NCBI GenBank assembly: GCA_963771175.1
Contig: CAVYSY010000056.1
Coordinates: 1 to 64,000 of the forward strand
Length of the DNA: 64,000 nt
Reading direction: 5' to 3'
From: an uncultured delta proteobacterium
GTDB lineage: Bacteria > Myxococcota > Myxococcia > Myxococcales > Myxococcaceae
Part shown: one piece after another, positions 1 to 39,244 of the stretch
Layout of the letters: each line of letters starts with the position of its first letter
How positions within the stretch are numbered: position 1 is the stretch's first letter
Made by a program: the position numbers and the translations under genes
The notes under the pieces: model-generated
Databases searched by the model: none
What the model was told of the DNA's origin: nothing
Seen by the model: the letters and a program-made list of their open reading frames with translations, nothing else

Positions 1-28
1 CCACCAATTGCTGCTGAGCCACGCCGGC
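1..28 (-). ncRNA. possible 5' end of a further atypical tRNA (cut by window edge or interrupted)
   Basis: Minus strand reads GCCGGCG-TG-GCTC-AGCAGC..., i.e. acceptor 5' strand, positions 8-9, D-stem 5' and a D-loop with the same GCAGC motif as the tRNA at 130-203. The bases that follow (AATTGGTGG) do not close the D-stem. Confidence 0.35.
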
Positions 29-129: not shown

Positions 130-203
130 TGGTGGGTCGCCACGGTGCTGCCCCGTGCTCTGCGGTTTAAGAGACCGCTGCATCGCTGCAATGCTTGCAA
201 CCC
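130..203 (-). tRNA. non-canonical tRNA-Lys (anticodon CTT) with encoded CCA
   Basis: Minus strand: GGGTTGC AA GCAT TGCAGCG ATGC A GCGGT CT-CTT-AA ACCGC AGAG CACGG GGCAGCA CCGTG GCGACCC A CCA. All four stems pair (7/4/5/5 bp, one G-U), the anticodon loop is canonical and the discriminator is A73. Confidence 0.88.
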
Positions 204-210
204 AGTCTCG

Positions 211-284
211 GCGACATGAAGGCGGGAGTTGAACCGCCGCGGCCAGGCCTGTGATTTCCTGACCGACACCGGAATTCGCGTCGC
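211..284 (-). ncRNA. tRNA-like structured element (T-arm plus long closing stem, no D-arm)
   Basis: Minus strand GCGACGCGAA...TTCATGTCGC closing stem, internal hairpin CGGTCAGG/CCTGGCCG and a T-arm GGCGG-TTCAACTC-CCGCC. It ends 7 nt before the tRNA-Lys. Confidence 0.5.
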
Positions 285-317
285 GTAAAAATGTGCGGCA
301 GCGGCAATCTCGCGGAT

Positions 318-1883: not shown

Positions 1884-3304
1884 CTAATGGACGACCATCT
1901 CGGCGTCCCGTGGCGCATGCGCCCTGCCCGAGGGGCCCGGCGGGACACGCCAGGCACCATACGGGGCGATGAGGGCATCCGCCTCGGGCGGGCCCCAGGT
2001 GCCAGGGTCGTACTCGCATAGCGGGGTGGCGCTGCTCACGACGGGGTCCACCACCCGCCAGGCCTCCTCCACCGCCTCCTGGCGCGCGAAGAGCGAGACG
2101 TCGCCGCGCATGGCATCTCCGAGCAGCCGCTCGTAGGGCCTCATCGTTCCCCCGGGCTGCTGGATGGCCACCAACTCCACGTCCTCGCCCACCATGGCTC
2201 CCCCGGGACGCATGGCGCGCGCGCCGATGGAGATGCGCACGTCGGGACCGAGCCGGAAGCGCACGGAGTTGGGCGAGGCCATCGAGGGCTCCTCGAAGAT
2301 GGGGCGGGGCGGGTGGTGCAGCTCCACGAAGACCTCGGTGGCGTCGGTGGGCAGGCACTTGCCCGAGCGGATGAAGATGGGCACGTCCGCCCACCGCCAC
2401 GAGTCGATGAACATCCGCACCGCGGCGATAGGTCTCCACGGTGGAGGTGGGCGAGACGCCGCGCTCGTTCCGATAGCCCCGGAACTGGCCCCGCACCACG
2501 CCGGACGGGTCCAACGAGCGCATGGCCTTGAAGACGCGCGCCTTCTCGTCGCGCAGGGCCTCGGGGTCCGCGCAGAAGGGCGCCTCCATGGTGAGCAGCG
2601 CCGACGACCTGCAGCAGGTGGTTCTGCAGCACGTCGCGAATGGCCCCCACCTCCTCGTAGAAGGCGCCGCGCCCCCGCACGCCGAAGCTCTCGGACAGCG
2701 TCACCTGCACGCTGCGCACGTGCTGCCGGTTCCAGATGGGCTCGAGGAAGACATTGGCGAAGCGGAAGAAGAGCAGGTTCTGCACCGGCTCCTTCCCCAG
2801 GAAGTGGTCGATGCGGAAGATGGCCGACTCGGGCAGGAAGCGGTGCAGCGTCTCGTTGAGCGCGCGCGCCGAGGCCAGGTCCCTCCCGAAGGGCTTCTCC
2901 ACCACCACCCGCGCCTCCCTCAAGCACTGGGAGCGGGCCAGTCCCTCCACCACCGTGCCGAAGAAGCTCGGGGGGATGGCCAGGTAGTGCAGCGGGCGCT
3001 GCGCCCCACCGAGCGCCTCGCCCACGAGGGCGAACGTCTTCGGGTCGCGGTAGTCCCCGTCCACGTAGCGCAGCAACTGGCACAGGCGCTGGAAGGCGGC
3101 TTCGTCCCACGAGCCGTGCGCCTGGATGCTCTCACGCGCCCGCTCGCGGAGCCGCTCCAGCCCCCAGCCCGCCTTGGCCACGCCGATGATGGGCACCGAC
3201 AGCCCTCGGGCCACCAGGGCCTGGAGCGCGGGAAAGATCTGCTTGTACGCGAGGTCCCCGGTGGCGCCGAAGAAGACGAGTGCATCCGAGTGCGGCGTGC
3301 CCAT
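1884..3304 (-). CDS. zwf: glucose-6-phosphate 1-dehydrogenase (2 frameshifts near 2590 and 2430)
   Basis: [46 protein letters not shown] and YERLL motifs spread over three frames. Confidence 0.93.
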
Positions 3305-3307
3305 GAC

Positions 3308-4326
3308 TCACCCGCCTCCCTTCCCTTCTCCGATGACCGCCGAACTGGTAGCGCATGGCGGACAGCAGCCTGTCGGCGAAGTCCCCCTCTCCCGCGGCTG
3401 CTGAAGCGCTGGTAGAGGGCACTGCCGAGCACCGGCGCGGCACGCCCTCGTCGATGGCCGCCGCGTGCGTCCAGCGCCCCTCGCCGGAGTCGGAGACGTC
3501 GGCCGGTGAACCCGGTCAGCTCAGGGCTGCCGCCGCAGCGCATCCGCGGTGAGGTCGAGCAGCCAGGAGGCGATGACGCTGCCACGCCGCCAAGCTCGGC
3601 CACCTCGGGGAGGTCGAACGCATAGCGGTACTCCTCGGGGTTGCGCAGCGGCGTCGTCTCGGCGTCCGAGGTGTGCCGGTGCATGCCCACGTCGGCGTGG
3701 CGCAGGATGTTGAGCCCCTCGGCGTACGCGGCCATGAGGCCGTACTCGATGCCGTTGTGCACCATCTTCACGAAGTGGCCCGCACCGTTCGGCCCGCAGT
3801 GCAGCCAGCCCTGCTCGGCCGGAGTCGGTGGACCCTCGCGCCCGGGCGTCGCGACGCGCCCTCGACACCGGGGCCAGCGCGACGAAGATGGGCTCCAGGC
3901 GGCGCACCGGCGCCTGCTCGCCCCCGATCATCAGGCAGTAGCCGCGCTCGAGCCCCCACACCCCGCCGCTCACGCCGACGTCCACGTAGTGCAGGCCCCG
4001 CTGGCGCAGCTCCGCCGCTCGGCGCAGGTCGTCGTGGTAGTGCGAGTTGCCCCGTCGATGACGGTGTCCCCGGACTGGAGCAGCGGCACCAGCTTCCCGA
4101 GCGTCTCGTCCACGAGGCCCGCGGGCAGCATCATCCACACCAGGCGCGGGACGGGAAGCTGGCGCATCAACTCGTCGAGCGAGAAGGCCCCCACCGCCCC
4201 CTCACCCTGGAGCGCCTCGACGACCTCCCGGCGCACGTCATGGACGACACAGCGGTGTCCCGCCTTCAGCAGCCGGCGCACCATGGCGCCGCCCATCCGG
4301 CCGAGTCCAATCATCCCCAGGTCCAT
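3308..4326 (-). CDS. gnd: 6-phosphogluconate dehydrogenase, short (YqeC-type) form, several frameshifts
   Basis: MDLGMIGLGRMG, DVGVSGGVWGLERGYCLMIGG, KMVHNGIEYGLM and LSAMRYQFGGH across frames. The 3' end is approximate. Confidence 0.9.
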
Positions 4327-4530
4327 TCCCCTCGCTCCTCCCTGGCAGCTCGGCCGGTCTCGCCCCATGGGCGTCCGCTCTCAATCTGTGTACCCGGCGA
4401 GCGGTACGGCAGCACGAGACGTGCGGGAGGCGCTCCGAGGCCCACGTGCCCCCGACATGGGGAGAAGCGGCCGAGCGGCCCGGCTCGCTCGCTTGTCCCA
4501 CGCCGTTCGGAGCCCCACCTTGCAAGGGTC

Positions 4531-6392
4531 ATGTCCCGCCCCCTCGAGGACTACGCCCTCATCGGAGACACCCAGACGGCGGCGCTGGTGGGCCGGGACG
4601 GCTCCATCGACTGGCTGTGCCTGCCCCGCTTCGACTCGGGCGCGTGCTTCGCGGCCCTGCTCGGCGAGCCGGAGCATGGCCGTTGGCTGCTCGCACCGGC
4701 CGGAGCGGCCCCGAGACAGGTGAGGCGGCGCTACCGCCCGGACACCCTCGTGCTGGAGACGGAGTACACCACCGAGGAGGGCGTCGTGCGGCTGGTGGAC
4801 TGCATGCCTCCGCGCGACCGCACCCCGGACGTCATCCGCGTGGTGGAGGGCGTGAAGGGCCGAGTGCCCATGCACCTGGAGCTCGTCATCCGCTTCGATT
4901 ACGGCTCGGTGGTGCCCTGGGTGACGCGGAACGGCTCGGAGCTGCGGGCGGTGGCCGGGCCGGACGCGCTCGCCCTCTACTTCCCGGTGAAGACACACGG
5001 CCAGGGCCTCACCACGGTGGCGGACTTCACCGTGTCCGAGGGCGAGCGCATTCCCTTCGTCCTGCGCTGGCACCCCTCCAACGAGCCGGCGCCCCCACCC
5101 CTGGACGGTCTGGCCGCGGCGGAGGACACCGAGTCCTGGTGGCGCGAGTGGTCGAGCCACTGCGCCTACCAGGGCCTCTGGCACGAGGCCGTCCACACCT
5201 CGCTGATGACGCTCAAGGCCCTCACCTACGCGCCCACCGGTGGCATCGTGGCGGCGGCCACCACGTCGCTGCCCGAGCGGCTCGGCGGCGTGCGCAACTG
5301 GGACTACCGCTTCTGCTGGCTGCGGGATGCCACCTTCACCCTCTACGCCCTGCTGCTCAGCGGCTTCCGCGAGGAGGCCATGGCCTGGCGCGACTGGCTG
5401 CTGCGCTCCGTCGCGGGAGACCCCGCGCAAGCTGCAGATCATGTACGGGGTGGCCGGCGAGCGCCGCCTCACCGAGCTCGAGCTGGACTGGCTGCCGGGG
5501 TACGAGGGCTCGCGGCCGGTGCGCATCGGCAACGCCGCCGTCCACCAGTTCCAGCTCGACGTCTACGGCGAGGTGATGGACGCGCTGCACCAGGCGCAAC
5601 GCAGCGGAATCACCGAGGACCGGCGCGCGTGGAACCTGACTCGGGTGCTGATGGACTTCCTGGAGTCCGGGTGGCGGAAGCCTGACGAGGGGCTCTGGGA
5701 GGTGCGAGGCCCACGGCAGCACTTCACGCACTCGAAGGTGATGGCGTGGGTGGCCTTCGATCGCGCGGTGAAGGCGGTGGAGCGCTTCGGGAAGGAGGGC
5801 CCGGTGGAGCGCTGGCGAGCCATCCGCGACAGCATCCACGAGGAGCTCTGCCAGCGCGGCCTATGACTCGAAGCGCGGCACCTTCACCCAGGCCTACGGC
5901 TCGACGGCCCTGGACGCGAGCATGCTGATGATGCCGCTGGTGGGCTTCCTGCCGCCCACCGACCCGAGGATGGTGGGCACCGTGCACGCCATCGAGCGGG
6001 AATTGATGCGCGACGGCTTCGTGCGGCGCTACCACACCCACGAGACGGAGGACGGGCTGCCCCCGGGCGAGGGAGCCTTCCTGGCCTGCTCCTTCTGGCT
6101 CGCGGACAACTACGTCCTCCAGGCCAGGCTGGACGAGGCGGAGGCGCTCTTCCACCGGCTGCTGGCCCTGCGCAACGACGTGGGGCTACTGGCCGAGGAG
6201 TACGACCCCGTGACGAAGCGGATGCTGGGCAACTTCCCGCAGGCCTTCTCACACGTGGGGCTCATCAACACGGCGTACAACCTCGCCCGGCACCACACCA
6301 GCCCGGCCCTGCACCGGCAGAGTGGCCATGAGGCGGAGGGCGAGCGAGCTGGCCAGGCCGCGTCACGGAGCCGTGTCGGCGGCCACCTTTGA
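4531..6392 (+). CDS. glycoside hydrolase family 15 (trehalase/glucoamylase-like), frameshifts near 5425 and 5860
   Basis: LEDYALIGD, IDWLCLPRFDS, RNWDYRFCWLRDA, QLDVYGE and LLAEE..GNFPQAFSH motifs. Confidence 0.93.
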
Positions 6393-7106
6393 TTCCGACA
6401 ACAGCCGCGGCAGCTCCGCCGCCTGGAAGGACGTCTCCTCCTTCAGCCCGCCTCCGCAGCGCACTCCCCCCACCCGCTCGAGCGTGACGGGGTCGCGCGG
6501 GAAGACGAGGAACCCCACCTCACCGCCAGGACCCCGCTGGAGCACCACGTGTCTCAGCTCGGCCTTCTCCCGCAGCTCCCCGTTCTGGAGCAGCTCCCGC
6601 CCCACCTGCCCATCGGACACGCCCGACCTGGACAAGCTCAGGGCGTACTTGCACACCTCCGTGCTGGCCCACCCCATGCGGAGGGGATTGAACCACCACG
6701 AGCTCTCCACCACCGGCTCGCGGCTCGACGCCAGCCAGCCCACGTGGTGCCCGATGCCCACCGTGGCCATCGTCGCGCTGAAGAGGAGCACGATGAGCGC
6801 CACCAGCGACACGCTCCAGCGCACGGGCCATGGACCCGCGTCCGCGACCTCGGGACGCAACCGCCGCCACAGCCGCCGCAGGAAGAGGTGCGTGCCCACG
6901 CCCAGCACCGCGCCCACCGCCACCGTCTCGGCGATGGCGCCCCAGCGGAACGTCACCTCGGGGAGCACGTCCAGGAGGAACTTCCACCAGCCCACCACGA
7001 GAAGGAAGGGCACCTGGAACATCCACATCTGGCCCGTGGTGAGGAGGAACACCAGCCCGAAGAACGTCACGAACCCCCATCCGAGCACCTTGGACACCCT
7101 GCTCAC
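6363..7106 (-). CDS. hypothetical membrane protein
   Basis: GTG start overlaps the upstream TGA (GTGA); three TM segments followed by a soluble C-terminus. Confidence 0.7.
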   Translation of the reverse strand: MSRVSKVLGWGFVTFFGLVFLLTTGQMWMFQVPFLLVVGWWKFLLDVLPEVTFRWGAIAETVAVGAVLGVGTHLFLRRLWRRLRPEVADAGPWPVRWSVSLVALIVLLFSATMATVGIGHHVGWLASSREPVVESSWWFNPLRMGWASTEVCKYALSLSRSGVSDGQVGRELLQNGELREKAELRHVVLQRGPGGEVGFLVFPRDPVTLERVGGVRCGGGLKEETSFQAAELPRLLSESKVAADTAP

Positions 7107-7822
7107 GGCGTGCCTCCCAGCTCGGCGTGGAGGGCCTCGAGGGGCATCTGGCGGATGTCCCCGTCCGTGAAGAGCACCCACCGCTCGCGGCCGAAGAGGC
7201 CCGGCTCGTAGGCCAGCGGCGCCGCGGGCGCGTCCGCCTTCTGCCCGCTCACATAGATGAAGTGAATGCCCGAGCTGCCCAGCACCCGCCAGCGCTCCTC
7301 GGGGATGCCCGGGGCGAAGTCGCTCGGGGGGAACTCGCGCCCGTGCTCGGCCGCGTAGGCCCATAGCGCCACGCGCAGCTCCTCGAGCCGCTGTCGCCGC
7401 GCCTGGAGCACCAGCTCCTTCTCCGGGGGCAGCACCGTCTCCTTGAGCTTGTAGGTGGTGCCCGTCTTCACCCACGCGCCGGGCGTCATCAGCTCGCGCC
7501 CGCCGGCAATCATCGAGAGCACGAGCTGGAAGCCGAGCCCCCAGAGGAACACCAGCGCCAGCGCCGCCCCGAAGCCGAGCTCGGGCAGCCGGGGCACGTC
7601 CCGCCGCAGCCGGTTCCACAGCGCCCGGACGGCGAGCGTCACCAGAAGGAAGACGAGCAGGAAGAAGGAGATGGCCTGGAAGCGCCGCGAGGCGACTTCC
7701 GTCAGCGTGAAGCTCGGCATCCCGGCCAGCGCGACGGCCGGGGTGAGCAGGAGCAGGACGAAGGGGAGGCGCGCGGGCACGAGCGACAGTCTGCCGCACC
7801 CGAGCCCCGCCCGGCCATCCAC
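7103..7822 (-). CDS. hypothetical membrane protein
   Basis: ORF with signal/TM segments and C-terminal LAYEP...RWVLFTDG. Start uncertain. Confidence 0.7.
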   Translation of the reverse strand: MDGRAGLGCGRLSLVPARLPFVLLLLTPAVALAGMPSFTLTEVASRRFQAISFFLLVFLLVTLAVRALWNRLRRDVPRLPELGFGAALALVFLWGLGFQLVLSMIAGGRELMTPGAWVKTGTTYKLKETVLPPEKELVLQARRQRLEELRVALWAYAAEHGREFPPSDFAPGIPEERWRVLGSSGIHFIYVSGQKADAPAAPLAYEPGLFGRERWVLFTDGDIRQMPLEALHAELGGTP

Positions 7823-7834
7823 CCCCCGCCCGAG

Positions 7835-8365
7835 TCAGACGCGGAAGGGGGCGGAGTGGCCCTCGGGCCAGAGCACCCGGGGCTCCTCGCCCTCACGGAC
7901 GAGGGCGATGAGGGCCCCGTCCACCAGGTCCTCCTCGTCGAGCGCCTCGGCGATGGTGCGCACGGCCACGTCCAGGTCCATCACGTGGCAGAAGACATTC
8001 ATGCGCCCGGGCTGCGTCTCGCCGCCCTCCACCTCGCCGTTGCCCGTCCAGCCCAGGATGTCCGTGAGCAGCTCCTCCACGGCATGGCGCTTCTCGAAGT
8101 CGTGCCCCGTCCCCTTGCCCTGGAGCGCGTACTGGATGACGAGCGGCGCCATCGCCTCCGGGTCCGGCTCGTCATAGCCCGCGTCCACCAGCGACTCGGC
8201 CGCCTGGGCAATGACCATGTCCGGGTCCTCGTCCGCGGGGGCGGGCGTCTCCTGCTCCTCGCCCGTCTCTCCGACGATGCCCGAGTGCACGGTGAGCTTT
8301 CCTTCGTACACCCACGCCTCCCAGTAGCGGAGGGTGTCGCCTTCCTTCTTGTAGAGCTTCAGCAC
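7835..8365 (-). CDS. hypothetical protein with WGR-like N-terminus
   Basis: LKLYKK..LRYWEAW..TVHSGIVGETG; acidic 176-aa ORF with good codon bias. Confidence 0.75.
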   Translation of the reverse strand: MLKLYKKEGDTLRYWEAWVYEGKLTVHSGIVGETGEEQETPAPADEDPDMVIAQAAESLVDAGYDEPDPEAMAPLVIQYALQGKGTGHDFEKRHAVEELLTDILGWTGNGEVEGGETQPGRMNVFCHVMDLDVAVRTIAEALDEEDLVDGALIALVREGEEPRVLWPEGHSAPFRV

Positions 8366-8402
8366 GGGCGCACTCTACACACAGGAGCCTCGCCGGCCCG
8401 AG

Positions 8403-9173
8403 TCAGAAGGCACGGCCCTGTCCACCATCCACCGGCACGGTGGCCCCCGTCACCCAGCGGGCCCGCTCCGAGCACAGGAAGACGACCACGTCGGCCACCT
8501 CCTCGGGCGTGCCGAAGCGGCTCCAGGGCAGCTCCTCGCGCACCATCTTCTCCACCTTCTCCGGCTGGGCCTGCCGCCGCCGGTCCCAGCTCCCCCCGGG
8601 GAAGAGGATGGAGCCCGGCGCCACCCCGTTGACGCGGATGCGGTGGCGCGCCAGGTCGATGGCCATCTCCTTGGTGAGCGCGGTGAGGCCCGCCTTGGCC
8701 GCCGTGTAGGGGGCGCTGGTGCCGTACTCGCGGCCGTAGATGGAGTTGATGTGGACGATGCACCCGCCGCCCCGGGCCTTCATGGCCTCCACCGCGTGCT
8801 GGGAGCACCACACGGCCGACATCAGGTTGCGGTCGAGCACGTCCTTCCACTGCGGCGCGGTGGCCACGTCGAAGGCGCCCGCGCCGCCACTGCCGCCCAC
8901 GTTGTTGACGAGGACGTCCAACGCCCCGAAGGCCCGCACCGCCGCGTCCACCGCCGCCGCCGCGCCCTCCGGGGTGGCCACGTCGCCCGCCACGGTCACC
9001 ACCTCGGCGCCGGAGGCCCGGAGCGCCGCCGCCGTCGCCTCCAGCCCCTCCGCTCCACGCGCGCTCAGACACACCCGCGCGCCCTCCCGCGCCAGCGCCG
9101 TGGCGATGGCCCGACCGATGCCCCGACTGCTGCCCGTGACGAGCGCTGCCCTTCCCGCGAGCTCCAAGTCCAT
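8403..9173 (-). CDS. SDR family oxidoreductase
   Basis: TGSSRGIG, NNVG, YxxxK (YTAAK), RVNGVAPG. Confidence 0.93.
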   Translation of the reverse strand: MDLELAGRAALVTGSSRGIGRAIATALAREGARVCLSARGAEGLEATAAALRASGAEVVTVAGDVATPEGAAAAVDAAVRAFGALDVLVNNVGGSGGAGAFDVATAPQWKDVLDRNLMSAVWCSQHAVEAMKARGGGCIVHINSIYGREYGTSAPYTAAKAGLTALTKEMAIDLARHRIRVNGVAPGSILFPGGSWDRRRQAQPEKVEKMVREELPWSRFGTPEEVADVVVFLCSERARWVTGATVPVDGGQGRAF

Positions 9174-9988: not shown

Positions 9989-11229
9989 TCACCTCCCGTC
10001 GAAGGGCGGCACCGGCGGGGGCGGAAGCTGGAAGCCCCGCGGCGTCTCCGGCGGGGGCTGTCCCGCGCCACCGATGCCGCGCTGGCCCTTCCCATCGGGC
10101 ACCGGGATGGGCCGACCCACCTGCTGCTCCACGTTCTCGTTGTTGTTGATGGCGAAGCGGACCAGCGCACGCAGGATGCGGTTGCGCCGCACGTTGCCCA
10201 CGACCTGCCGCAAATCCTCGTACACCGTCGGGTCCTTGATGAGGCCCCCCAGCGAGCCCTCGCCCCTGGCCACCAGGGACGTCACCTGCTTGATGTCCGC
10301 CGCGGCGCTGCTCAGGTCCGCGAACAAGGTGCCCGCGTCCCCGTAGAAGAGCTGATGGATGGCACCGTTGGGGTTGTCCTTCGCGTCCTGGAGCAGGCTC
10401 GCGAGCTGCCCCGCCGCGTCCCCCAGCTCCTCCAGCGCCTTGGCCCCCTCGCCGCCGTAGATGAGCGAGTGCGCCGTCCCGTCCCCGTTCGCCACCTCGT
10501 CGAGCACGGCCTCCACGTGGCCCACGGCCTTCTCCACCCGCAGCGCCGCGCGCGAGGCATTGGCCATCAGCGTCCGGACCTGCCTGCCCGCCTCCTTGTC
10601 ATAGATGAGCGCATGCAGGGCGCCATCGCCCTTCTCCACTTCCTGGAGCAGCATCCTCAGGCTGTGCACGCTGGCCGCGACGTCCTCGGTCAGCTGCGGG
10701 TCCGTGTAGGCCTCCACCGCCTTGCGCACCGTGCGGCTCACCGCCACCGAGTCCTCCAGCACCTGCGCCGCCCCGCGCATGATGGAGGACAGGTCGCCAC
10801 CGGGCGCGCTCGGAATCTCCCCGCCCGGCGGCACGGGATCCGCCTCCGGAGAGCCGATGGTGATGTCCACCGCCTTGTCGCCCAGCACGCCCAGGCTGGC
10901 CAGCCGCGCCACCGAGTCCATCCGGACGCGCTGCGCATGCTCGGCGCTCAGCTTCAGCCGCACCTCCAGCCGCTTCTCCCCGGGCTTGGCGGGAAGCGCA
11001 CCCCGTCCACCTTGCCCACCTCCAGACCGCCCAGCCATACCGGCGACTGGTCGGACAGTCCCTCCACGTTCTCGAAGTAGGTGTGGAACTGCACCTCCTT
11101 CTCGAAGAGGCGCCGCTCCTCCCCGATGAGGAAGATGACGAGGCCCGCGAGTCCCAGGGCCACGGCCACGAAGGCCCCCACCCGCAGCGCCAGGCGCTTG
11201 TCCTGGGACGTGGTCGTGAAGAGGCTCAT
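9989..11229 (-). CDS. mlaD: MlaD/MCE family protein (frameshift near 11000)
   Basis: N-terminal TM, FENVEGL..SPVWLGG.EVGKV, LGVLGDKAVDIT and G.GSLGGLIKDP..Y helical repeats. Confidence 0.88.
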
Positions 11230-12048
11230 GGCGCCACCCCCTCCCGGGGCATCAGTTCATACCGCCGCGCGTCCAGGAAGGCCCGCACCTCGGGCACCGT
11301 GGAGGCCTTCATCTCGTCCGGAGTCCCCACCTGGACGATGCGCCGGTTGGCCAGCATCGCGAGGCGGTCGGACACGGAGAAGGCACTCCCCATGTCATGC
11401 GTCACCACGATGGAGGTGCACCCGAGCTTCTTCTGCATGGAACGAATCATCTGGTTGATGTTCTCGGTGGTGACGGGGTCCAACCCCGTGGTCGGCTCGT
11501 CCCAGAGGATGACCTCCGGGTTGGTGGCGATGGCCCTCGCCAGCCCCACCCGCTTCTTCATGCCGCCGGACAGGTCCGCCGGCCGCATGTGCTCGATGCC
11601 CGGCAGGTCCACCAGCGCGAGCTTCTCCGCCACCCGGGTCCGCAGCTCCTCGGGGGACATGCTCCGGGAAGTGCTCGCGCAGCGGGTAGGCGATGTTCTC
11701 CCCCACCGTCAGCGAGTCGAACAGCGCCGAGCCCTGGAACACCATGGCCACGTGCCTGCGGAGCTCGAAGAAGTCCTCCTCGCGGAAGCCCGTGAGGTCC
11801 TGCCCCTCGAAGAGGATGTGGCCGCCATCCGGCCGCAGCAACCCGATGAGGCACTTGAGCAGCACGCTCTTGCCCGAGCCCGAGCCGCCCATCACCGTGA
11901 GGGTCTCGCCCGCGTACACGGAGAGCCGCAGGTCGTCGAAGACGCGCTTGGGCCCGAAGGACTTCTCCAGGTGCTCGAAGCGGATGAGCTCCTCGCCCTG
12001 CACGGGAGGGCGGAACAGGAGGCGGGGCGTGTCGTGGCGGAAGAGCAT
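11226..12048 (-). CDS. mlaF: MlaF-type ABC transporter ATP-binding protein (frameshift near 11660)
   Basis: GGSGSGKS, FQGSALFDSL, LSGGMKKRVGLARA, DEPTTGLDP. Confidence 0.9.
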
Positions 12049-38135: not shown

Positions 38136-39244
38136 TCAGACGCGCATCGGCATGACCACGGCGGTGAAGCTGCGGTCGCCCGGGGCGTGCAGCACGCCGG
38201 GGCTGTGCTCGTCACCCAGCTCGAAGGCCACCTCGTCCGTGTCCGTCACGCCCAGCACGTCGATGCAGGTAGCGCGCGTTGAAGCCGATGGTGATGGCGG
38301 CGCCCCGGTACGCGATGTCCAGCGCGTCCTTCGCCTCGCCCAGGTCCGGGTTGTTGGCGGTGATGAGGAGCTGGTTCTCCGCCAGGCCGACGCGGACCGC
38401 GTAGCTCTTGTCCGCGCTCAGCAGCGCGATGCGCTTGAGACCCTCGAGCAGGCGCGTCTTGGGCACCAGCACCGCCTTCTCGCCTTCCTTGGGGATGACG
38501 CGCTGGTACTCGGGGAACTGCCCGTCGATGAGCCGCATCACCATCGTCAGGCCCGTCTTCTTGAAGAGCGCCGAGTTCTCCGCGAAGCCCAGGTGGCACT
38601 CCGCGTCCGGCGCCTCGTCCAGCAGGCGCTTGAGCTCCAGCAGGCCCTTGCGCGGGATGATGACGCCGCTCTTGAGCTTGAAGTCCCCGGGCAGCTCGCG
38701 CTCGATGAGCGACAGACGGTGACCGTCCGTGGCCACCATGCGCACCTTGCCCCCCTGCTGCGGCTCGAAGAAGACGCCGTTGAGGATGTAGCGCGTCTCG
38801 TCGGTGGAGATGGCGAACTGCGTCTTCTTGATCATCTCCAGCAGCGTGGCGCCGGTCGATCTGCACCAGCGGCGCGTTCTCCTCGCGCGGCAGCTTCGGG
38901 TACTCCTCGGGCGCGGTGCCGACGATCTTGAAGTGCGCCGAGCCGCTGGTGATCTCCACGTAGTTGTTCGCCAGCTTCTTGAGCGTGACGTGGGCGTCCG
39001 GGAGGTTCTGGACGATGTCGAAGACGTACTTGGCGCTGAGCGTCACCGCGCCGGGCTTGAGGACCTCGGCGGGGTGCTCGGAGACGATGCCGATCTCCAG
39101 GTCGAACGCCGTGACGGTCACCCCCGTCTTCGTGGCCGTGACGAGCACGTTGGCGAGGATGGGCATCGTCGTCTTGCGCTCCACGATGCCCTGGGCGCGG
39201 TAGAGGGCCTTCTTCAGCTCGTCGGCGGCGATGCGGAATTCCAT
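38136..39244 (-). CDS. dnaN: DNA polymerase III beta clamp (frameshifts near 38850 and 38270)
   Basis: KTTMPILANVL, ETRYILNG, VATDGHRL, RLIDGQFPEY, GFNARY; C-terminal VVMPMRV. Confidence 0.95.

Follow-up and report, generated by a model that had tools for sequence, protein, structure and literature searches.

We analysed a stretch of 64,000 nucleotides (the window) from an uncultured delta proteobacterium (assembly GCA_963771175.1, contig CAVYSY010000056.1, positions 1 to 64,000 of the forward strand). Close to its left edge lies a non-canonical gene for a lysine-tRNA-like RNA with the anticodon CUU, referred to here as the Lys gene, which folds into an intact cloverleaf and departs from other tRNAs at its elbow. 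Sequence comparison places it in a lineage of phage-type tRNA-Lys and, in its relatives, in tRNA-gene arrays of the L-array type whose members have a remodelled elbow in common. The feature is as follows:

130 to 203, minus strand: non-canonical tRNA-Lys(CUU)-like gene of 74 nucleotides with encoded CCA, assigned from its sequence, fold and homologs.

Sequence and fold of the tRNA-Lys(CUU)-like gene

The Lys gene is read from 203 to 130 on the minus strand and has one exact match in the window, where none would be expected by chance. Its acceptor stem of seven base pairs, one of them U.G, is followed by A8 and A9. The D arm consists of a four-base-pair stem and the seven-nucleotide loop UGCAGCG, with A26 next; the anticodon arm has a stem of five base pairs and the loop CU-CUU-AA, with a variable region of four nucleotides after it. 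The T arm has a five-base-pair stem ending in G53:C61 and the loop GGCAGCA, that is, G54 G55 C56 A57 G58 C59 A60, and the 3' end is formed by A73 and the encoded CCA.

The minimum-free-energy fold is the cloverleaf itself, with all 21 stem pairs intact and an energy of -32.6 kcal/mol, compared with -23.7 +/- 3.1 kcal/mol for shuffled sequences (z -2.8, 0/200 as stable), while folding of the plus strand of 130-203 is unremarkable (z -0.36, 62/200 shuffles). An earlier interpretation of these letters, made without database searches (the sequence-only reading), had described a cloverleaf in which every stem pairs, with a CU-CUU-AA loop, A73, an encoded CCA, a reciprocal swap of U8/A14 to A8/U14, and a T loop that is GGCAGCA instead of UUCRANY; all of these are present in the perfect 7/4/5/5 structure. 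The same reading had described a D loop, UGCAGCG, without the invariant GG. The GG is indeed missing, and the description can be refined, since the loop has A18 G19 in place of G18 G19, so that the G19:C56 pair is retained. The loss at the elbow is limited to G18 and U55, and the elbow as a whole is not gone. A chance cloverleaf was considered and is ruled out by the shuffle folding, the single exact occurrence and the 39 full homologs described below.

Few nucleotides in biology are as invariant as G18 and U55, the latter present as pseudouridine, and tRNA finders depend on both. Compared with a canonical elongator tRNA, the Lys gene has the usual shape (7/4/5/5 stems, a seven-nucleotide anticodon loop, U33 and a purine at 37) and deviates in four respects: A8/U14, a covarying reciprocal state, stands for U8 and A14; A18 G19 stands for G18 G19; only C56, R57 and G53:C61 are kept from the T-loop set U54 U55 C56 R57 A58 with G53:C61; and neither ARAGORN nor the Rfam tRNA model RF00005 recognizes it. 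The identity rules of E. coli tRNA-Lys are U35, U36 and A73, and the Lys gene has all three through its anticodon CUU and A73. Positions 130-203 do not have the character of a Y RNA of the YrlA type, as they have no Rfam YrlA match and their terminal helix is an ordinary seven-base-pair acceptor stem with CCA.

Homologs in reference genomes

Homologs were collected in a single scan of reference genomes with a pattern in which 18 bases were fixed (the 5' acceptor strand, A8 A9 and the D stem) and the loops were left free. The scan returned 87 stretches, of which 42 loci (designated L with a number) carry the Lys element and 45, a count that includes the broken copy L009, are chance matches without a cloverleaf. 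The 42 loci comprise 39 full copies and three that are cut off or broken. By record title, 33 are labelled Verrucomicrobiota, four carry the labels of other phyla and five are unlabelled; the genome of the window is not among them, and five assemblies each have two copies on different contigs.

Among the 39 full copies, 18 are identical to the 74 nucleotides of the window and there are 19 distinct sequences overall, a near-invariance that extends across dozens of species. The anticodon is CUU in 36 copies, UUU in one and absent in two; A73 is found in 38 of the 39, L037 having G. The T loop is GGCAGCA in 32 copies (one of them one base shorter), GGCGGCA in two, GGUAGCA in one, AGCAUUA in two and UGCGAAU in two, and the D loop is UGCAGCG in 31, UGCAGUG in four, UGCCGCG in two, UGUAGCG in one and UGUAGUGG in one. 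The sequence-only reading had argued for selection instead of decay and had named canonical loops in homologs as the finding that would speak for read errors or decay. The homologs turned out otherwise: G55 is present in 39 of 39 and U55 in none.

For the analysis of covariation we aligned 18 rows, namely the window, 13 variants, one array tRNA-Lys(UUU) and three phage tRNA-Lys; L011, L087, L070, L039, L079 and the sequence of phage RsoM2USA were omitted for length differences. The cloverleaf and the 19:56 pair are paired in 99.7% of cells, compared with 31-51% in slid controls. Changes on both sides of a pair occur at 11/22 pairs, a number equalled by 0/500 shuffles; these double changes come mostly from the four outgroup rows, and the close family shows only one-sided G.U changes. 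The compensatory changes and the 18 identical copies bear out the argument for selection.

A covariance model built from this alignment (R1) scores 130-203 at 102 bits (E 1e-26), and the next site in the window reaches 12.7 bits. A second copy and other tRNA-like genes in the window were sought with this model, filters off, and can be rejected, as only 130-203 matches. In the collected loci the model finds 228 tRNA-like sites in 43 loci. The Lys gene is the most conserved class of the arrays, with a mean pairwise identity of 0.966 over the 56 non-fixed positions, compared with 0.77-0.96 for the others.

tRNA arrays with a remodelled elbow

The homologs lie in tRNA-gene arrays. Each of 18 loci checked has 5-22 tRNAs called by ARAGORN within +/-10 kb, and the order of genes recurs: Cys, several genes missed by ARAGORN, the Lys gene, a long-armed Thr, Arg, three short Leu and a long Ile, followed further on by Lys(UUU) and Gln. 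Hand parsing of L052 9661-9920 adds a Gly(UCC) with the T loop CGCAAUA, a long-armed tRNA, and a Pro(CGG) with the T loop GGCGGUA, all missed by ARAGORN; because hand parsing finds such members, the ARAGORN counts understate the arrays.

In an array that was inspected member by member, almost all tRNAs have G55 and AG for GG. The counts for the three sets of loci are:

42 member loci: 436 tRNAs parsed, 426 with G55, 370 with a D loop without GG.
7 phage loci: 107 tRNAs parsed, 0 with G55, 5 with a D loop without GG.
45 unrelated loci: 19 tRNAs parsed, 0 with G55, 0 with a D loop without GG.

The ten exceptions to G55 in the member loci include canonical tRNAs with GG and UUCGA that lie outside the arrays and serve as an internal control, and two others are mis-registrations of the parser. 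The elbow therefore differs from the canonical one across the arrays as a set: U55 has become G55, G18 is mostly A18, and position 19 keeps a Watson-Crick pair with position 56 that covaries, AG occurring with C56, AC with G56 and AU with A56 (G:C, C:G and U:A). N18 is A in 338/393 assignable array tRNAs, an upper bound because the assignment rule prefers A. N20 is C in 219/393 array tRNAs, compared with 25/99 phage tRNAs, which permits a C20:G55 pair. Positions 8 and 14 also covary (U/A in 364 tRNAs, A/U in 26, and A/A or U/U in only 3), so that the A8/U14 of the Lys gene is one of two alternating states, and so do positions 54 and 58 (U/A in 331, A/U in 51). The GGCAGCA type of loop, with G54 and G58, is also found in array genes for Trp(CCA), Val(GAC) and Pro(CGG).

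The sequence-only reading had proposed a compensatory contact through G and C bases of the D and T loops, which fits G19:C56 together with the possible C20:G55. A larger contact, a four-pair kissing helix between the GCAGC of both loops, was tried as a general rule and fails for the T loops AGCAUUA and UGCGAAU and for the GGCGGUA of Pro(CGG). The majority form, together with variants that differ from it by a single base, is compatible with this helix, which is kept as a possibility for the majority form only. For a link between base 58 and the base that precedes A18, the counts are no more than suggestive and come from a scan that over-counts, so that no weight is given to it.

The array tRNAs encode CCA in 412/426 cases and carry identity elements that match their anticodons: G3:U70 in 8/10 Ala, G73 in 16/16 Asn and 13/13 Asp, U73 in 30/30 Cys, U1:A72 in 32/33 and G73 in 33/33 Gln, and A73 in 14/15 Lys. 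As far as sequence can indicate, this is the pattern expected of a chargeable set.

Other properties of the arrays are unusual. The "Leu" tRNAs (CAG, UAA, CAA and GAG) are 75-77 nucleotides long and have no long variable arm (for example, L052 10256-10490, 10081-10168 and 10590-10681), and the "Thr(CGU/UGU)" and "Ile(UAU)" genes are 87-94 nucleotides long with long arms, body types that contradict the usual class I/II rule for the anticodon. When a 2.2-kb piece of an array was searched by blastn, only single ordinary plasmid tRNAs and single phage tRNAs matched.

Phage relatives

Positions 1-360 have no blastn match among plasmids. Among phages they have one, which spans exactly the Lys gene and falls on an unannotated stretch in the tRNA array of Xanthomonas phage X1 that ARAGORN calls tRNA-Lys(UUU). 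Further blastn searches and fetched loci added tRNA-Lys genes with A8/U14 in phages BUDD, RsoM2USA and Yappy, with T loops AUCGUUA or AUCGAUA that have an A54/U58 swap. The D arm of the Lys gene is also present in tRNA-Thr or tRNA-Trp genes of a Vibrio phage, a Dinoroseobacter phage and an uncultured huge phage, and in two of these cases the anticodon stem of the window gene is present as well.

The closest relatives outside the carrier genomes, as judged by these matches, are thus the tRNA-Lys genes of Xanthomonas phages X1 and BUDD, whose acceptor stems are identical to that of the Lys gene. With them, the tRNA-Lys genes of RsoM2USA (Ralstonia) and Yappy (Curtobacterium) share A8 A9, the D stem GCAU/AUGC, U14, A26 and A73; CCA is encoded in X1, BUDD and RsoM2USA as in the Lys gene, and not in Yappy. 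The anticodon and T stems differ from those of the Lys gene by compensatory changes, and the phage genes also sit within tRNA arrays. Unlike the Lys gene, they keep G18 G19 and U55 C56 (D loop UAAGGUG, T loop AUCGUUA with the A54/U58 swap), and ARAGORN detects them, whereas it misses the Lys gene with its A18 and G54 G55 ... G58. Because all the phage tRNA relatives that we found keep G18 G19 and U55, A8/U14 is a trait of the lineage and the loss of G18 and U55 is not.

Surroundings of the gene in the window

The part of the array that lies within the window consists of the Lys gene, a tRNA-like RNA upstream of it and 19 nucleotides of the next gene before the left edge, compared with up to 22 ARAGORN tRNAs, and further ones that ARAGORN misses, within +/-10 kb at the homologous loci. 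The features around the Lys gene are:

207 to 291, minus strand, core about 285 to 211: conserved tRNA-like RNA of no assigned family, from the upstream alignment of member loci.
35 to 126, no strand assigned: heptamer tandem repeats, unit about GARTGCR on the strand of the Lys gene, from Tandem Repeats Finder (TRF) and an inverted-repeat search.
10 to 28, minus strand: start of the next array gene, of the long-variable-arm "Thr(CGU/UGU)" type, first 19 nucleotides only.
1 to 9, plus strand: exact inverted copy of 127-135, an inverted repeat of 9 nucleotides at 100%.

The upstream RNA directly adjoins the Lys gene in nearly all loci (for example, L052 9921-10000). It has a terminal stem of about 10 base pairs, an eight-base-pair hairpin whose 11-nucleotide loop contains a conserved UCACAG, and a canonical T arm with the loop UUCAACU, and it has no CCA. 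RNAalifold applied to 20 of these sequences gives 23 pairs, four of them with double changes; in the window copy, a single C.A mismatch interrupts the terminal stem and the T loop contains one additional C. In L014, L040, L077 and L080, the 3' strand of the hairpin is replaced by a proper anticodon-like stem-loop. No Rfam family matches the upstream RNA in the window or in L052. The idea that it is the Y RNA of a Ro60 system is not supported, since the Y-RNA-like Rfam matches lie elsewhere (in L052, in the gap between RtcB and Rsr) and none falls on the upstream RNA.

Together, the heptamers make up a long, imperfect palindrome that separates the Lys gene from the tRNA gene that comes next. 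TRF reports 35-63 with period 7 (4.1 copies) and 72-125 with period 7 (7.7 copies) and period 21 (2.4 copies), and 34-65 is 84% complementary to 95-126. Similar runs of heptamers lie 3' of the Lys gene in L014, L039, L042, L077 and L087. The palindrome attracts weak matches to Rfam microRNA models: at E<=10, positions 1-700 have 15 weak matches to microRNA, small nucleolar RNA and small RNA models, 12 of them on it.

Positions 1-9 mirror the last six bases of the Lys gene (CCACCA) and its three-nucleotide trailer, and may represent a convergent second Lys copy to the left of the window, an inversion breakpoint or an assembly foldback. A terminator scan of 1-1300 gave one terminator-like site, far from the Lys gene. 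The G+C content of the window is 69.9% and that of the member loci 53-64%. Elsewhere in the window the genes are of ordinary chromosomal kinds, and many are in fragments. Split or truncated protein genes lie at 2144-6392, 11229-11708, 38215-39042 and other places, and the fragments include G6PD (57 residues of the C domain), a GH15 glucoamylase-like gene in two frames, the NAD-binding part of 6PGDH, an ABC ATPase, and DnaN without its N domain. This fragmentation may reflect indel errors introduced by the assembly or a wide occurrence of pseudogenes.

RNA-repair genes and the neighbourhood of the arrays

Between the Phe and Cys genes of the arrays lie genes for an RtcB ligase (NCBIfam models of the RtcB family, including TIGR03073) and for a Ro60/Rsr protein with TROVE and vWA domains, which scores 515 bits with NF041674, under the cut-off of 900. 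In L052, the interval 6262-6914, between RtcB (4810-5919) and Rsr (7087-8779), has sub-threshold Rfam matches to Deinococcus_Y_RNA (54 bits) and YrlA (33 and 31 bits); an open reading frame of 136 amino acids at 6227-6637 is probably no gene. By tblastn, RtcB is found in 21/42 member loci, 15 at >=70% identity to the L052 protein and six at 27-30%, the vWA part of Ro60 in 16/42 and TROVE in 12/42, counts to be read with the fact that many member loci are short contigs. RNA-repair genes and Y-RNA-like genes are thus frequent in the arrays, and with the near-universal G55 and missing GG of their tRNAs they form the part of our results that goes beyond the sequence-only reading, as does the inheritance of A8/U14 from the phage-type tRNA-Lys lineage.

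PADLOC, run on seven array proteins, reported no defence system, and NCBIfam named only RtcB and Rsr among them. The outer flanks of the arrays differ among loci and contain an integrase, a restriction enzyme with its methylase, AbiEi antitoxins, HNH endonucleases, Fic and a transposase; in L011, a DDE transposase is inserted directly after the Lys gene. Defence and mobile genes lie at L036 1755-6023 and 17083-19717, L023 5593-7772 and L011 10266-12062, among them a BsuBI/PstI-type restriction enzyme with an Eco57I-like methylase, a phage-type integrase and proteins with AbiEi antitoxin domains. The array neighbourhoods have the character of defence islands or mobile elements.

Interpretation

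The reading that we favour, with a probability of about 0.6, is that the Lys gene is genuine and under selection, and that it encodes a supernumerary tRNA-Lys(CUU) that can be charged and has a remodelled elbow. The charging, expression and purpose of the gene are what we infer, along the following lines. The RNA would be transcribed as part of an array and released through RNase P cleavage and trimming of its 3' end, and its L shape would be held by A8.U14, G15.G48 and G19:C56. G55 may contact A18, pair with C20, or both, and a G54.G58 pair would replace T54.A58. Lysyl-tRNA synthetase (LysRS) would lysylate the RNA through U35, U36 and A73, and the product would read AAG. Without the universal T-Psi-C sequence, neither pseudouridine at 55 nor m5U at 54 is possible, and the RNA could escape the factors that read that sequence. 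TruB and TrmA modify the T loop of ordinary tRNAs, and toxins that cleave the T loop exist. As to purpose, we can speculate that the arrays hold a supernumerary backup pool of tRNAs, kept beside repair genes and usable when canonical tRNAs are damaged or targeted. The trn array of Anabaena, which is switched on by translational stress, is a precedent for such an inducible spare set.

Several observations weigh against this reading. ARAGORN finds no tRNA gene in the entire 64-kb window, so that the Lys gene is invisible to it and no other tRNA is called. Rfam likewise returns nothing for the window at its gathering score, and with the limit relaxed to E<=10 for 1-700 its tRNA model still does not match; in L052 the copy of the Lys gene is the only array tRNA that it misses, although 27 neighbouring ones pass. 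Being missed by both ARAGORN and the Rfam tRNA model, the Lys gene is the most deviant member of the arrays, and no working T loop with G54/G58 is known to us. The 18 fixed bases of the search pattern are bases of the Lys gene itself, which overstates conservation and puts relatives with other acceptor or D stems, canonical-looped ones included, out of reach. In L011 and L087 (both at 10001-10077), the anticodon arm is swapped for the same eight-base-pair hairpin with a CGCU tetraloop, and the L030 copy carries C33, so decoding is not kept everywhere. Relative to the downstream flanks of L025, L034, L040, L052, L080 and L091 (in L052, Thr(cgt)), the match of the Thr-type gene ends after 19 nucleotides; since that gene is broken at the inverted joint, the locus may be a rearranged edge of an array, or the array may be mirrored beyond the window. 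No sigma-70-like site was found in 1-1300 by a promoter scan whose consensus is of the E. coli type only, and neither RtcB nor Ro60 is encoded within the 64 kb. Finally, escape from enzymes and toxins that read the T-Psi-C loop is a speculative reason for the G55 rewrite.

A wider proposal, which we advance tentatively and regard as possible but less likely than not, places the chargeable tRNA-Lys in a parallel, complete set of tRNAs with a rewritten elbow in soil and freshwater bacteria, mostly labelled Verrucomicrobiota, carried in RNA-repair and defence islands. Such a set would be an insulated second pool for translation that TruB and TrmA could not modify and T-Psi-C readers would not read, and it would survive attacks or shutdowns that disable ordinary tRNAs. 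G55 would stand for U55 or pseudouridine 55, with A18 and often C20 as its partner, and Lys(CUU) would be its most extreme and most conserved member.

The main competitor, which we rate as a possibility clearly behind the favoured reading, is a tRNA-shaped RNA with a task outside the ribosome: a partner, substrate, decoy or sensor of RtcB, Ro60/Rsr and Y-RNA repair, or a donor of amino acids to a transferase that acts outside the ribosome. The Lys gene is the only examined array member missed by both detectors, yet it is the most conserved; it lies in arrays with Ro60/Rsr, Y-RNA-like genes and RtcB, and the tRNA-like RNA without CCA is almost always its upstream neighbour. Two of the 39 copies keep everything but the anticodon arm, which hints at a function that needs no anticodon. 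These are L011 and L087, whose D loops, T loops and acceptor stems differ despite the common replacement hairpin, and which represent a conserved anticodon-less derivative of the Lys gene. The tRNA-Gly of S. aureus, without G18G19 and U55/C56, offers a precedent according to the available text of its description (PMC4574755). The GCAGC of both loops could also give a four-pair kissing contact, with which the observed single-base variants are wobble-compatible, but the extended contact is lost in the AGCAUUA and UGCGAAU variants of the T loop. Against a non-ribosomal task, most copies have C32 U33 CUU A37 A38 and nearly all have A73 and CCA, which is what decoding and LysRS need. In addition, G55 occurs in some 25-30 array tRNAs for most amino acids with matching identity elements, which looks like a set for translation, and no gene for an aminoacyl-tRNA transferase was seen beside the Lys gene.

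It is very unlikely that the Lys gene represents the tRNA-like attachment site, or a terminal relic, of some mobile element and that its copies are identical through recent horizontal spread and not through function. Near-identical copies do occur across genomes of 53-70% G+C, including pairs on different contigs in five assemblies and four bins labelled as other phyla; integrase, transposase and defence genes lie near some loci (in L011, the DDE transposase directly downstream), and there is an inverted nine-nucleotide joint at the left edge of the window. However, the loci did not arise recently by copying of a single element, given how far their flanking array tRNAs have diverged (0.77-0.96 identity); their gene order is conserved, and no integrase is consistently adjacent. 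Least probable of all is a decaying pseudogene, or loops altered by sequencing errors in a low-quality assembly: the fragmented genes of the window (G6PD, GH15, 6PGDH, ABC ATPase and DnaN), the extra C and mismatch of the upstream RNA and the truncated next tRNA gene would suit it, but the comparison of homologs largely refutes it, as the 74 nucleotides are identical in 18 other copies, most of the 39 have the same loops, 21/21 stem pairs are intact and the differences from phage genes are compensatory.

What distinguishes these arrays is that a set of otherwise well-formed tRNAs for many amino acids swaps near-invariant elbow bases in a coordinated way, and that the most deviant of them, the Lys gene, escapes standard annotation. 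If these RNAs are charged and used, they would offer structural biologists and tRNA engineers an alternative working elbow (A18/G55, G54/G58 and A8/U14), annotation would be missing part of the tRNA complement of these bacteria, and the role of supernumerary arrays and their ties to RtcB/Ro60 repair and defence islands would become testable.

Comparison with known systems

In the open-access papers and preprints covered by our search, we found no description of tRNA arrays of the G55 type; subscription journals and supplements lay outside that scope. The closest known counterparts are the L-arrays, with up to 43 tRNA genes. According to the text available, they have been passed on by horizontal transfer, are known from seven phyla, Verrucomicrobia being one, and can have rtcB as a neighbour (PMC8421152). 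The same text reports that the Anabaena array is induced by translational stress and that 23/26 of its tRNAs are charged in vivo, and the part of it that was searched makes no mention of the T loop, G18 or U55 (PMC8421152). Verrucomicrobia are not mentioned in the available text of Tran et al. (PMC4758250), and jumbo-phage tRNAs are described together with RtcB-type ligases in that of another report (PMC7824862).

We parsed the Anabaena array ourselves (L096, plasmid delta of Nostoc sp. PCC 7120). It resembles the arrays studied here in its dense runs of at least 20 supernumerary tRNA genes with encoded CCA, its short "Leu" tRNAs of 75-77 nucleotides, and its neighbours of the HNH endonuclease or rtcB type. 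Unlike it, with its ordinary T loops, the arrays with the Lys gene have G55 in 426/436 tRNAs, and the window shows the edge of an array only. U55 is present in 22/24 of the Anabaena tRNAs and G55 in one (1/24), which rules out G55 as a general property of L-arrays. The sole G55 tRNA, Glu(CUC) at L096 3007-3084, has the T loop UGCAACU and a D loop without GG, AAUAAGAUA, and thus pairs the same two changes as the arrays of Verrucomicrobiota. The Anabaena array is reportedly under the control of TrcR (PMC10272220).

A second comparison is with Y RNAs of the YrlA type, which are also tRNA mimics encoded beside Ro60 and RtcB, and sub-threshold matches to YrlA and the Deinococcus Y RNA lie in the same arrays as the Lys gene. 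Y RNAs, with their tRNA-like domains, are described as encoded near Ro60 and bound by Ro60/Rsr (PMC4201824). They bind Ro through a terminal stem, lack an anticodon loop and in most cases do not have an acceptor end either. The Lys gene, by contrast, has no Rfam YrlA match and possesses a full acceptor stem, an anticodon loop and CCA.

The third is with the non-proteinogenic tRNA-Gly of staphylococci, a likeness that the sequence-only reading had aptly drawn. This RNA has neither G18G19 nor U55/C56, is charged nevertheless, and serves cell-wall synthesis, as far as the available text describes it (PMC4574755). Like the Lys gene, it is a cloverleaf without the G18 G19 dinucleotide and without U55; it is represented by a few isoacceptors of one amino acid with U or C at 18-19. 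The Lys gene differs in that no Fem-type transferase lies nearby, that it keeps G19:C56, and that its change spans a set of tRNAs for many amino acids.

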